This document shows, one piece after another, positions 2,655 to 7,617 of a DNA stretch of 64,000 nucleotides (position 1 is its first letter; every line of letters begins with the position of its first letter). Source of the DNA: Escherichia coli (GTDB taxonomy: Bacteria > Pseudomonadota > Gammaproteobacteria > Enterobacterales > Enterobacteriaceae); NCBI RefSeq assembly GCF_003334305.1, contig NZ_QOWS01000001.1. One strand, given 5' to 3'. The notes under the pieces are model-generated. The model had not been told where the DNA came from. It saw nothing but the letters and a program-made list of their open reading frames with translations, and searched no databases. The position numbers and the translations under genes were made by a program.

Positions 2655-2756
2655 AATTCTCTCGTTCTGATGACAGGTCAGATCCGCTTCACCTGATGAA
2701 GCGGTTAGGGGAGTGCCCCCACTTTAAGGGCGGGCATTGTAGCGCAATCGGCGGGT

Positions 2757-3053
2757 TTAGCTCCAGTGTAAATGTCTGGTGGCGTCCTGGTTTTGGTTAA
2801 GGATACGAATGACGATAATTTCCCCTGGTGATTGCAGGAAATAAATGACGTGGCGTTCAAAAGGAAGAACAAAAATACCTTCGCCTAATTCAGGTCTGGG
2901 CGTACCTATATTATTGTTACTCAGAATCTGGAGAACGTCTGAAAGATGTTCCACATATCTGTCGGCTTGTGGTTCGCCGAAATGGTGATAGCTGTAATAC
3001 CAGATGCCTTCTAAATCCTCATTGGCTTTTGGCATGAGTTTAATAATACGCAC
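2757..3053 (-). CDS. ParE-like toxin (RelE/ParE superfamily) of a type II toxin-antitoxin pair
   Basis: 98 aa from a GTG start preceded by AGGA 6 nt upstream; ParE-like sequence pattern (EDLEGIW...FGE.QA..Y...L...P..G...FERHVIYF...IIVIRILNQNQD); lies 1 nt after the antitoxin stop. Confidence 0.7.
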   Translation of the reverse strand: MRIIKLMPKANEDLEGIWYYSYHHFGEPQADRYVEHLSDVLQILSNNNIGTPRPELGEGIFVLPFERHVIYFLQSPGEIIVIRILNQNQDATRHLHWS

Positions 3054-3054
3054 A

Positions 3055-3306
3055 TTATTTCCTTATCCCTGCTTTCACCTTCCGTAAGAACGCGTCCTTT
3101 TCCCACGGCTGAGCTTCACCACTACTCAACCCTTCTGCGAGCATGTCACGTAACGCTTGCAGGCGAGACTCTGCTTGCTTTTCTCGAAGTAATCGCAGTG
3201 ACTCACGGATCACTTCGCTTTGGGTGCGATAGTCGCCGGATTCAATTAAGGACTCGATAAATTCACGCAACTCATCGCCGAGATCAACCGTCATCGTTCT
3301 GGCCAT
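3055..3306 (-). CDS. ParD-like ribbon-helix-helix antitoxin
   Basis: 83 aa from ATG at 3306 (MARTMTVDLGDELREF...), typical ParD/COG3609 N-terminus; an alternative in-frame ATG at 3351 would add 15 aa. Confidence 0.7.
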   Translation of the reverse strand: MARTMTVDLGDELREFIESLIESGDYRTQSEVIRESLRLLREKQAESRLQALRDMLAEGLSSGEAQPWEKDAFLRKVKAGIRK

Positions 3307-3395
3307 TTTACGCCCGCCTGTAAGTAAAAATCTTACATCAGTGTATGTCATAAACCGGATAGCGTCACGAAAGTATTAGAAGATATTTTGGCACA

Positions 3396-3407
3396 TGAAC
3401 ATGTTCA
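3396..3407. promoter_or_regulatory. Perfect 12-bp palindrome TGAACATGTTCA upstream of parD; candidate operator for autoregulation
   Basis: Palindrome seen directly in sequence, about 90 bp upstream of the preferred parD start. Confidence 0.35.
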
Positions 3408-3559
3408 GGAGGATAAGTATGGGATGGTAAACAAAGAAAGCACAACGAGTGCTCGTCAGTGCCCACTATTTTAATGGCGGCGGTTACTCTTAATTATTAA
3501 TAACTAAGCGTTATTTGGATATAAAGCCGGACGCCAACAACCCACGCCCGGCATCGTAA

Positions 3560-3892
3560 TTACGTATTGTCTTTCACCGTCTGGCTTGTGCCATTGGCTT
3601 TAACGGAGGCAATTCCGGTTTCACGAGATTGCGCGGTGGCGTACATCTGGCTGGAGCCGATAATTTGATGATTAGCGGCTTTCAGATTGAAATAGAATTT
3701 GCCGTTACTTGCCGTTTTTTTCTCATAGCGTTCTTCTTGCGGGCTGTTGCTACGCACCGACGCGATGCCCTTTTCCGCAGAGGCTTTTGAGGTATACAGC
3801 TCGCTGGTGAGGATAGTCTCACCATTGCCCGCTTTTAGCACAAACCGGAACTGATTATCACTGCTCTTACTGAGTTCAAACCAACCAGCCAT
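3560..3892 (-). CDS. yegP: YegP, tandem DUF1508 (UPF0339) protein
   Basis: 110 aa from ATG at 3892 (MAGWFELSK...); two repeated halves (xGxxxxxSExYxSKxSAxxGIASVxxN). Confidence 0.8.
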   Translation of the reverse strand: MAGWFELSKSSDNQFRFVLKAGNGETILTSELYTSKASAEKGIASVRSNSPQEERYEKKTASNGKFYFNLKAANHQIIGSSQMYATAQSRETGIASVKANGTSQTVKDNT

Positions 3893-4082
3893 AATGACTC
3901 CTTGATTGAAATTGTGTATCGAAAACAGCATCTAAAGGTGCTGTTTACCGATTAAAGTATGAGCGATTTTCTGATGCCTGCCAGGGCGGAGAGATAATGT
4001 CAGTTTGCTGACCATGCGTGGGATAATGTTGCCGGATCGGGTCTGAACGCCATCTCCGGCTAACAAAATAATGTCGCTAAAA

Positions 4083-4805
4083 CTAAACGATGCGGCAGGC
4101 GTCGGCTTCCCAGCGGTAACCGACGCCGTAAACGGCGCGGATAAATGACTGTTCGGCGTCGAGAGATTCCAGCTTGCGGCGCAGGTTTTTAATGTGGCTG
4201 TCAATGGTGCGGTCGGTTACTACGCGGTAGTCGTCATAAAGATGATTGAGCAATTGCTCTCGGGAGAACACTTTTCCTGGTTCATGAGAGAGCGTTTTCA
4301 GCAGACGAAATTCCGCAGGCGTCAGGTCAAGCATTTTACCGCGCCATGAAGCCTGAAAACGACCTTCGTCGATAATCAACGGGCTTTCAGCATCCTGTTG
4401 CTGCAACTCGCGCTGCGGTTTGCAACGGCGCAAAATGGTTTTGACGCGCGCTACCACTTCCCGTGGGCTGTACGGCTTACAGATATAATCATCTGCGCCA
4501 ATCTCCAGCCCCAGCAGGCGATCGATCTCTTCGATTTTTGCCGTCACCATCACGATCGGAATGTCAGAAAAACGACGAATTTCCCGGCACAGCGTCAAGC
4601 CATCGGTGCCAGGGAGCATCAGATCCAACAGGATCAGATCCGGTGGTGTCTGGCGCACATACGGCAGTACCTGATCGCCGTGGCTGATAAGCGTCGGCGC
4701 ATAGCTCGCAGCACGCAGATAATCAATGAGCAACTGCCCCAGCTTCGGTTCATCTTCCACGATCAAAATACGCGGTGTGTTTTCGTCGATTGGTAACTCG
4801 GTCAT
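4083..4805 (-). CDS. baeR: Response regulator BaeR (OmpR family)
   Basis: 240 aa; receiver domain with conserved Asp and winged-helix C-terminus; start overlaps baeS stop (ATGA). Confidence 0.95.
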
Positions 4806-6205
4806 ACTTCTCTCTGTAAATCCCGTTCCAGCGGTAACTCTACTGTAATGCTTACCCCGCCAAAAGGCGAATGGGCAGCAATAATGCGACCATTATGTGC
4901 TTCAACAATGTTCAGGCAAATCGCCAGCCCCAGCCCGGAACCGCCGCTGGCACGGTTGCGGGAACCTTCGGTGCGATAAAAACGTTCAAACAATTTTTGT
5001 AGCTGATCGTCACTGACACCTGGCGCACTGTCGGCAAAGGTCAGGCGCACCGTTTTGTCGCGCTGCCCGGCAGAGATTTGCAGGCTGCCGCCGCTGTCAG
5101 TGTAGCGCAGGCTGTTTTCCAGTAAGTTATTGAATAACTGCATTAAACGGTCGCGATCGCCAAATACGGTAATACTGTCTGGCAGGGAAAATTGCAGTTT
5201 CAGGCCACGACTGGCGAATCGTTCGCGAAATGCGCCGCCCGCCACTTCCAGCAGTGGGATCAAATCTACCGGTGCTTTTTGATAGGCGAGAGCGCCTTCA
5301 TCAGACATCGACAACTGATGGAGATCGTCAACCAGTTTGGTCAGTGTACCGACCTCCGCCTGTAAAGACGCCACCGTCTCCGGCGTGAATTTACGCACGC
5401 CATCCTGAATGGCTTCCAGTTCACCGCGCAGCACCGCTAATGGCGTACGCAGTTCGTGAGAAATATCGGCCATAAAATCGCGCCGCATTTGCTGGTTTTT
5501 CTCCAGTGTGTTGGCAAGCTGGTTGAAGTCTTGCGCCAGTTTGCCCAGTTCATCTTCACTGGTGGGCGTTACGCGGGTAGTGAAATCGCCCGCCGCCAGT
5601 TTGTGCGTGCCATCGACAAGTCGTTTTACCGGTGCCAGTAAACCGCGCGCCAGCAGAAAGGTGGCGAGCGCCGCGAGTAACGTTGCCAGAGCGACAATCA
5701 ACCAGCTGGTTTGCCGCTGTTGTTTATCGAAATTGATATCAGTATTGCGCGTTAACCGCTCAACGGGGGAGGCGATCACCGCGCCAACTTCCGCACCGTT
5801 GACCAGAATGGGTCGCCGTGTACCGTCAGGTGGAATCGGCGCTCGCGGACCAACCAGCACTTTGTTGTTTTGATCAACCACCCAGAACTGGGTACGCCAG
5901 CCGTGCGGTGGCATACCCGGGCCGGGTTTATCTTCCGAATTATCGTGTTCAAATGAACGCAGGATCTGAAAGACAAAGCGATCATTGTTGCGCAGGAAGC
6001 GCCAGTTGCCATGCTGCGCATACTGCTCGCCAAGCGCATCACTTAACAGTTGTAATCGCTGTTCATTACCATGCTTGATGTAATCAATAAAGCCACGCTC
6101 AAAACTGATACGCACCGCCCAGTGCATACTGATCAGCAAGACAATGCAGGTGGCGAAAATCGCCAGAAACAGTTTGCCGGTAATACCAGGTCGCCAGAAC
6201 TTCAT
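4802..6205 (-). CDS. baeS: Sensor histidine kinase BaeS
   Basis: 467 aa; two TM segments, HAMP, HisKA (H-box SHELRTPL) and HATPase domains. Confidence 0.95.
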
Positions 6206-7617
6206 TGCGCGCTCCTTTTTCGCCGCGAAATAGCTACATTTTGATGCGTATCGTTCGGCACTCTGGCAAAGATGAACGCCGGAAGGGCGATGATCAACGC
6301 CATGCTAAGCCAGGTGTACATAAAGACGGTTTGTGTGGTGCCGCTGTCGACGCTGACATGCTGTGAACCAAAAAGTCCCAGCAACAGCCCGGCGATAGTG
6401 ACGCCGATACTCATCGACAATTGCATAATCATCGACAGCAGGCTGTTGCCGCTGCTCGCCAGATTGTCCGGGAGATCTTTCAGCGTCAGGGTGTTCATGG
6501 AGGAGAAACGCGTCGAGTTGACCATCCCTTGTAAAAACAGGACGAACGGCAAAACGTAGTACCAGCCCAGCAGGGCGGTAGTCATAAACAACAGGGTGAC
6601 CAGCGACAGACCCAGCGTGGTCGCTACCAGTACCCGACGATAACCAAAGCGATTCACCACCTGTACCACAATTCGCTTCATTCCCATGCTGCCAAGCACC
6701 ATCGGGATCATCATTAGTCCGGCATGAAACGGCGAGAAACCGAGGCCAATTTGCAGGAAAACCGGTGTCATAAAGGGCAACATGCCACTGCCAATACGTC
6801 CGGCAAAGCTCCCCGCCAGGCCCAGCGAAAAGGTACGAGTACGGAACAGTTTCAGACTGAACAGGGCACGGTTGTTATTTCTGGCGTGCAGCAGATAAAG
6901 CACCAGTGCCACCACGCCAACTGCGACCAGGCCTGCAATCGTCAGCGGCGATAAACCTGTACCTTTACTGCCGTCCAGCGCCAGGGTTAATACCGCCATG
7001 CCAACCGCCAGCAATAAAAATCCGGAGAGATCAAAGCGCCGCGTCTGCATGGTGTAGTTCGGCATTAACAGCAATGTGGCGATCGCACCGATAATCCCCA
7101 CCGGAATGTTGATCAAAAAGATCCAGTGCCACGACGCGTACTCCACCAGCAGACCGCCGAGCGCCGGACCGAGCAGCGGACCGACCTGACCGGGTAACGT
7201 GACAAAGGTCATCGCCGCCATATATTGCTCGCGCGGTACGATTTTCATCACCGTCAATCTGCCGACCGGCACCATCATCGCGCCGCCAACGCCCTGTAAC
7301 GCGCGTGCCAGCAACAGTTCGTTCAGCGTCCCGGAAAGCGCGCAAAACAGTGAACCGAGAGTAAACAGCACGATGGCGGTAAAGAAAATATTGCGCACGC
7401 CGACTTTGTCCGCCAGCCAGCCGCTGGCGGGCAGCATCACCGCCACGGTCAGCACATAAGAGACAATGACCATGTGCATATGCAACGGACTTTCCCCGAG
7501 GCTTTGCGCCATTGAGGGAAGGGCGGTGTTTACGATGGTGGTGTCCAGCGACTGCATAAAGAAGCCGAAAGCCACAATCCACAATTGCCAACGGGTGCTG
7601 TCGGGAAGATCTGTCAT
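6202..7617 (-). CDS. mdtD: MFS transporter MdtD
   Basis: 471 aa polytopic membrane protein; MFS-like repeats; position between mdtC and baeS. Confidence 0.9.

Follow-up and report, generated by a model that had tools for sequence, protein, structure and literature searches.

yegP, a small gene in a 64,000-nucleotide stretch of an Escherichia coli chromosome (the window; RefSeq assembly GCF_003334305.1, contig NZ_QOWS01000001.1), follows baeR, the terminal gene of the mdtABCD-baeSR operon, on the same strand. Our analysis indicates that yegP is very probably a monocistronic gene of the RpoS general-stress response and no extension of the BaeSR/Mdt module. In the arrangement that we propose, yegP would be transcribed from a weak promoter that lies between it and baeR (-35 CTGGCA, 17 nt, -10 CATACT), its leader of about 57 nt would carry a strong AAGGAG ribosome-binding site, and the transcript would end at a conserved GC-rich stem-loop immediately after the stop codon. 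Transcripts that start at the mdtA promoter, which BaeR activates, would not reach yegP to a measurable extent. The order baeR-yegP-yegQ is a local synteny confined to Enterobacteriaceae. The product would be a basic cytoplasmic pseudo-dimer whose level rises in stationary phase and in response to stress.

Binding of RpoD holoenzyme to the baeR-yegP spacer in vitro was reported by Shimada et al., who found a peak there in genomic systematic evolution of ligands by exponential enrichment (SELEX) with E. coli K-12 W3110 and assigned to it the promoter CTGGCA-17-CATACT (PMC3946193). The window contains this composite motif exactly once, and 100 shuffles did not produce it. The gap was aligned across 8 sequences from 5 genera (Escherichia, Citrobacter, Enterobacter, Kluyvera and one metagenome-assembled genome, MAG). 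Mean column identity was only 48%, and the sole conserved blocks were the promoter and the ribosome-binding site. CATACT was invariant in all 8 sequences, and the position of the -35-like hexamer was kept, as CTGGCA, TTGGCA, CTAGCA, CTGGAA, CTGGAC, CTCGCA or TTAGCA. Promoters read by sigma-S have, according to consensus work from the Hengge laboratory, a -10 element near TATACT, a C at -13 and a degenerate -35, and a C before the last T of the -10 is typical of them. CATACT shares 5 of 6 positions with TATACT, the hexamer that sigma-S prefers, and the yegP -35 is degenerate; at -13, 5 of the 8 enterobacterial sequences have C, but the window has T. We infer that transcription starts near 3949, which would give a leader of about 57 nt. 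A first-pass annotation of the window had raised the possibility of a yegP promoter in the gap, and it is supported by the SELEX motif at 3984-3956, by this phylogenetic footprint and by the RpoS dependence of the gene.

That dependence is strong in published data. In stationary-phase E. coli O157:H7 EDL933, the ratio of yegP expression between wild type and an rpoS mutant was 185, which places it among the most RpoS-dependent genes (PMC2907692). It was induced 4.5-fold at a growth-phase transition in O157 Sakai, and both multi-stress meta-analyses and zinc-stress data group it with dps, osmY, elaB and yeaG. On these data yegP behaves as a member of the RpoS regulon both in rpoS dependence and in stationary-phase induction. 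Like uncharacterised stationary-phase genes such as elaB, yiaG, ygaM, ybgS and yciGFE, it is small, monocistronic and strongly dependent on RpoS; these genes appear beside it in the table of the RpoS regulon and among the hubs listed for multiple stresses. Unlike the products of those genes, YegP has the pseudo-dimer fold of DUF1508 and is far more widely conserved (63-94% protein identity across Gamma- and Betaproteobacteria).

A sigma-S-like -10 of the form C[CT]ATA[CA]T was found upstream of 8 of 82 orthologues, nearly all of them from Enterobacteriaceae, against 2.8 expected, so a conserved RpoS promoter outside this family was not borne out by the motif scan of these 82 orthologues. A separate observation concerns Pseudomonas sp. 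BBP2017, whose YegP shares 83% identity with that of E. coli and whose yegP lacks bae and yegQ neighbours. The same CCATACT motif lies 65 nt upstream of that gene, an Enterobacter-like distance; this could reflect horizontal transfer of the gene with its promoter, or a mislabelled assembly.

The whole 64-kb window was also searched for BaeR sites with the 18-mer box of Nishino, TTTTTCTCCATDATTGGC. The single match, at 15119-15136 with one mismatch and 54-71 bp upstream of the mdtA start, served as a positive control. In the baeR-yegP gap the best match to the box had 7 of 18 positions mismatched, compared with a shuffle mean of 6.9. A BaeR half-site consensus, TCTNCANAA, was discarded as a probe; it gave 6 matches against 7.2 expected, none of them at the mdtA promoter.

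Published perturbations of BaeR agree with this picture. Transient BaeR overexpression raised 8 genes in 5 transcription units, yegP not among them, and the induction decayed along the mdt operon from 5.3-fold at mdtA to 1.5-fold at baeS (PMC2731931). When a baeR knockout was compared with wild type by RNA sequencing (RNA-seq) in 5% ethanol, log2 changes were -4.0 for mdtA, -3.8 for mdtB, -3.6 for mdtC, -3.4 for mdtD, -4.6 for baeS and -9.4 for baeR (PMC7657598). yegP (b2080) was absent from the changed-gene lists of this knockout in both 5% ethanol and lysogeny broth (LB); in the ethanol list the locus that follows b2074-b2079 is b2146, and yegP therefore lies outside it, although this is absence from a thresholded list and not a measured zero (PMC7657598). 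The same study placed chromatin immunoprecipitation-exonuclease (ChIP-exo) peaks of BaeR in the mdt-yegP region only before mdtA, and its BaeR iModulon consists of spy, mdtA and baeR only (PMC7657598).

The first-pass annotation had suggested that yegP may be co-regulated with BaeSR/MdtABCD and had proposed, as a check, to follow its expression in a baeR mutant and during envelope stress. The ethanol experiment provides that comparison from the literature, with yegP not among the changed genes. With no box in the gap, no response to BaeR overexpression or baeR knockout, and an adjacency limited to Enterobacteriaceae, co-regulation is not upheld; the idea fails because yegP has an independent, BaeR-unresponsive promoter, which the annotation itself had named as the ground for giving it up. 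yegP thus adjoins the BaeR-regulated mdtABCD-baeSR operon on the same strand and is syntenic with it within Enterobacteriaceae, but differs from the BaeR regulon in having no BaeR box, no ChIP-exo peak and no response to baeR deletion or overexpression, and in losing the adjacency outside the family.

In those supplementary tables of the knockout study that were searched, yegP occurs only in an unrelated zraR comparison (PMC7657598). There, in a zraR knockout in plain LB, it fell by log2 6.65, with its neighbours ogrK, yegR and yegE also down (PMC7657598, Dataset S3). This drop may reflect the rpoS status of the strain or a growth-phase difference, rather than control by ZraR.

The position of yegP beside baeR was followed in 80 orthologue loci from other species (one genome per species, 63-94% protein identity). 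baeR, baeS, mdtD or yegQ lay near yegP in 7 of the 80, all from Enterobacteriaceae, and these flanks were limited to Escherichia, Citrobacter, Kluyvera and one enterobacterial MAG; Enterobacter has the same baeR-yegP arrangement in contigs that were fetched separately. Within 4 kb of yegP, no relatives of bae, mdtD or yegQ were found in Erwinia, Rosenbergiella, Pseudomonas, Acinetobacter, Stenotrophomonas, Shewanella, Thiobacillus, Comamonas and others. As a clue to function we also looked for a neighbour that different genera have in common; these loci yielded none, only synteny blocks specific to a genus. Many of the orthologues directly precede textbook intrinsic terminators of their own.

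The gap between baeR and yegP (3893-4082) measures exactly 190 bp, as the first-pass annotation had stated, and the gene coordinates (3560-3892 and 4083-4805) agree with its placement of yegP downstream of baeR on the same strand. Kluyvera, Enterobacter and Citrobacter have gaps of 123-140 bp. The Escherichia gap is longer because of an imperfect palindrome, GCCGGAGATGGCGTTCAGACCCGATCCGGC, at about 4028-4057 on the minus strand, which is present only in Escherichia in the gap alignment. We take this palindrome to resemble a degenerate repetitive extragenic palindromic (REP) element, as about 21 of 30 positions match the REP consensus. Together with a small hairpin it makes up the structured region after the baeR stop codon (Table 1), which would act as a weak read-through barrier at best. 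In other genera a terminator is easier to recognise at the corresponding place: in Enterobacter a clear one (CCCGCC-CTCT-GGCGGG followed by TTTTTT) separates baeR from yegP, and a related MAG has one likewise.

An RpoS gene with its own promoter has to be weighed against explanations that bring transcription in from the operon, and several observations weigh against it. The promoter matches the sigma-70 consensus at only 8 of 12 positions, which is below the scan threshold, and because of this score a sigma-70 consensus scan of 3300-4300 missed it and reported no promoter. Both structures after baeR lack a U-tract in E. coli, and low-level read-through from baeR into yegP may therefore occur there, at a level too small to register in RNA-seq. 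Behind the yegP hairpin, K-12 and most genera have GCTTTACC, which makes a poor U-tract and leaves the efficiency of termination uncertain. To these can be added the thresholded nature of the knockout list and the fact that both ends of the yegP transcript are predictions.

One competing explanation makes yegP the seventh gene of the mdtABCD-baeSR operon, reached by read-through and induced through BaeR in envelope stress. The shared strand, the short gap, the lack of a strong intrinsic terminator after baeR in E. coli and the conservation of the baeR-yegP order in Enterobacteriaceae are what this would predict. The six operon genes, however, fall by log2 3.4-9.4 in the baeR knockout in ethanol while yegP is not listed, BaeR overexpression does not raise it, the BaeR iModulon excludes it and the gap holds no BaeR box. 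Clear terminators after baeR in Enterobacter and the related MAG, and the absence of the adjacency in about 72 of the 80 other species, also speak against it, and we regard membership in the operon as highly improbable. Mixed schemes, in which an RpoS-dependent promoter of yegP does most of the work and a small read-through from mdt-bae adds to it, draw on the same weak hairpins without a U-tract after baeR, yet if yegP changes at all in the baeR knockout, it does so by less than the cut-off of the gene list, and induction has already faded between mdtA and baeS; such a contribution is improbable. EcoCyc, as cited in PMC2731931, has the mdt operon as sigma-S dependent, so the operon and yegP may rise together in stationary phase with BaeR not acting on yegP, and a Salmonella study reports induction of the BaeR regulon by stationary phase (PMC3160322). 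Transcription of yegP from its own RpoS-dependent promoter remains by far the best account of these data.

Table 1. Positions of yegP, its presumed control elements and neighbouring genes in the window
Feature	Position	Strand	Basis or remark
yegP, 110 aa + stop, two tandem DUF1508 repeats	3560-3892	minus	list of open reading frames; Pfam PF07411 twice; match to PDB 2K8E
yegP promoter	3984-3956	minus	-35-like CTGGCA 3984-3979, 17-nt spacer, -10 CATACT 3961-3956
Hairpin in inferred yegP 5′ untranslated region	3913-3952	minus	-14.8 kcal/mol, z=-3.5
Ribosome-binding region ATCAAGGAGT	3897-3906	minus	invariant across the 8-sequence enterobacterial alignment
Stem-loop GCCGGGCG...CGTCCGGC	3552-3526	minus	T-rich tail TTTATAT 3525-3519
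Structured region after baeR stop codon	3999-4059	minus	REP-like imperfect palindrome at about 4057-4028 and small hairpin 4012-3999; z=-2.5
baeR, terminal gene of mdtABCD-baeSR operon, upstream neighbour of yegP	4083-4805	minus	open reading frame and RefSeq annotation
baeS	4802-6205	minus	
mdtD	6202-7617	minus	
mdtC, mdtB, mdtA	beyond mdtD, to about 15065	minus	
ParD	3055-3351	minus	
ParE	2757-3053	minus	
yegQ/trhP	1293-2654	minus	

The terminator-like hairpin that the first-pass annotation had placed downstream of yegP was found at 3552-3526, followed by TTTATAT. Its folding energy is unremarkable (z=-1.0), but its stem, GCCGGG/CCCGGC, is invariant in the 8 enterobacterial sequences while the loops vary, and the inner part of the stem has changed in a compensatory way (one pair, for instance, is C-G in 3 sequences and U-A in 3). 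The structure is probably a terminator or 3′-end stabiliser. The hairpin in the presumed leader is conserved in the alignment only within Escherichia; one of the aligned loci (L007) has lost the 5′ arm, and no compensatory changes were seen.

A 780-bp cassette encoding a ParD/ParE toxin-antitoxin pair (2746-3525) lies between yegP and yegQ/trhP. Of 5426 complete E. coli genomes, 1837 carry it; K-12 does not. Its junction is the exact 3′ base of the yegP hairpin, where 21 bp of K-12 sequence have been replaced, and because of this insertion the hairpin is followed by TTTATAT instead of GCTTTACC. The insertion also removes sequence upstream of the presumed yegQ -10, with GCGCTACAAT retained, and the promoter context of yegQ may thus differ between strains. 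A rather doubtful reading is that the ParDE insertion gave the yegP hairpin a better terminator tail and rewired the sequence ahead of yegQ (trhP). In other respects the K-12 locus has the same gene and the same promoter motif; the window strain differs from it in the cassette at the yegP hairpin and in the T37A replacement in YegP. The gap and yegP coding DNA are 99.3% identical to those of a K-12-derived strain, the window runs in the reverse of the K-12 orientation, and a 1.6-kb query covering the yegP locus was matched in 5424 of the 5426 complete genomes.

The longest open reading frame for yegP in the list that we used spans 3560-3931 on the minus strand, and the start was assigned to the ATG at 3892 because an AAGGAG precedes that ATG and the 13-codon extension upstream of it is unconserved. 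The AAGGAG lies 6 nt ahead of the ATG, and the ribosome-binding site is unchanged in the 8 enterobacterial sequences. The longer start at 3931 (123 aa) was rejected: genera other than Escherichia do not keep the added codons, and the invariant site stands in front of the 3892 ATG. A 90-aa reading frame at 3932-4204 was dismissed as noise, being an out-of-frame overlap with baeR. The 110-aa product is annotated in RefSeq as 'YegP family protein'.

That YegP is a small protein built from two DUF1508 repeats was confirmed by two significant Pfam matches to PF07411, at residues 11-57 (E=9e-22) and 61-108 (E=1.3e-21); the repeats are identical at 18 of 48 positions. Its sequence is that of K-12 YegP in the nuclear magnetic resonance structure 2K8E, with T37A as the sole difference. 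The K-12 protein (b2080) is UniProt P76402. YegP has a mass of 12 kDa, an isoelectric point (pI) of 9.4 and a net charge of +4. The AlphaFold2 model (predicted local distance difference test score 90.9) has two beta-beta-beta-alpha units, and YegP has the (pseudo)dimer fold of DUF1508/UPF0339, of which 2K8E, 2K49, 6Q2Z and 3BID are solved members. Orthologues with 63-94% protein identity are spread across Gamma- and Betaproteobacteria.

Thr37 of K-12 YegP is a phosphosite in a phosphoproteome study (PMC8055822). Codon 37 (window 3782-3784) encodes Ala here, and residue 37 is variable among the aligned orthologues. Because the position varies, conserved regulatory phosphorylation at this residue appears disfavoured.

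A 2026 paper still describes YegP as uncharacterised, and hints to its activity come from its relatives. Among close homologues fused to other domains (54-60% identity to YegP), one (P0253) carries a C-terminal RiboL-PSP HEPN domain (Pfam E=1e-7) and was found on two independent contigs, another (P0201) an N-terminal XRE-type helix-turn-helix (HTH) domain, and a third (P0261) a Lys/Ala/Pro-rich tail like those of histone H1 and HC2. A YegP-like domain also stands at the C-terminus of the tryptophanyl-tRNA synthetase (TrpRS) family NF008923. In the Menshen system, NsnA has a tandem DUF1508 at its N-terminal sensor position, with a proposed PC4/Whirly-like topology (PMC12065111). DUF1508 has been described in fusion with Bub ubiquitin-like proteins, and in 57 cases a yegP homologue lies downstream of capK-capS, a gene pair that responds to DNA damage.

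On this basis we tentatively suggest that the tandem DUF1508 could be a module that binds either nucleic acid (single-stranded DNA or RNA) or some other conserved ligand; E. coli YegP would be its free-standing form, a stress protein, and elsewhere the module would be fused to effectors or regulators. A more specific and rather doubtful version has the tandem DUF1508 as a sensor of nucleic acids or damage signals, in which free, sigma-S-induced YegP would act on single-stranded nucleic acid (nucleoid or RNA) and the fused forms would signal to defence or stress effectors. It is similarly doubtful that the module would pass on such a signal where it is fused to HEPN RNases, Menshen NsnA, Bub ubiquitin-like proteins or XRE repressors, or is under CapK/CapS control. 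PC4/Whirly-type binders of single-stranded nucleic acid, the comparison drawn for NsnA, resemble YegP in being basic (pseudo-)dimers of small beta-sheet-plus-helix units (PMC12065111); YegP did not, in our analysis, qualify as structurally similar to the PC4/Whirly folds. It also counts against a nucleic-acid role that the fusions are single metagenomic representatives. YegP might instead serve as an adaptor between proteins, or as a module for oligomerisation or a chaperone-like task, rather than bind nucleic acid. This alternative, which we hold only slightly less likely than the binding module, sits poorly with the basic character of YegP (pI 9.4) and with fusion partners (HEPN, HTH, H1-like tail, TrpRS) that are all nucleic-acid-handling.

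Further observations concern the wider family. The gene for the HEPN-fused homologue (L087, 4001-4972) lies beside a gene for a Dus tRNA-dihydrouridine synthase. Very large proteins made of DUF1508 repeat arrays, up to 1561 aa long (P0121-P0166), outscore true YegP orthologues. At least one multi-repeat homologue (P0186) has a lipoprotein-like signal sequence at its N-terminus, and not every DUF1508 member is therefore cytoplasmic. YegP has a full-length match among the PHROG families, yet homologues occur in only 3 phage records, and PADLOC gave no match to it.

On the far side of yegQ, the small RNA CyaR/RyeE was found at 1125-1210 on the minus strand (Rfam, 100.7 bits), with yegQ on one side and a P2-like ogr gene (739-1020, plus) on the other; CyaR was the sole Rfam match above the gathering score of its family, and there was no Rfam match in or around yegP. 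An open reading frame resembling P2 gpD follows at 88-720 on the plus strand. A strain with an identical yegP region (L001) has yegR and yegS at that place, and a P2-type prophage therefore appears to lie on the yegQ/CyaR side of the window.

yegP itself, its locus, its RpoS dependence and its promoter motif are already known, and its independence of BaeR can be read from published supplements. What this analysis adds is the promoter footprint, the conserved hairpin after yegP, the limit of the baeR adjacency to Enterobacteriaceae, the ParDE junction and the list of homologue fusions. For annotation, yegP is better described as an independent gene of the RpoS regulon than as part of the Bae/Mdt module. 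DUF1508 is highly conserved and stress-induced, has solved structures, and is linked to HEPN, NsnA, Bub and CapK/CapS; knowledge of what E. coli YegP binds could inform several newly described immune systems.
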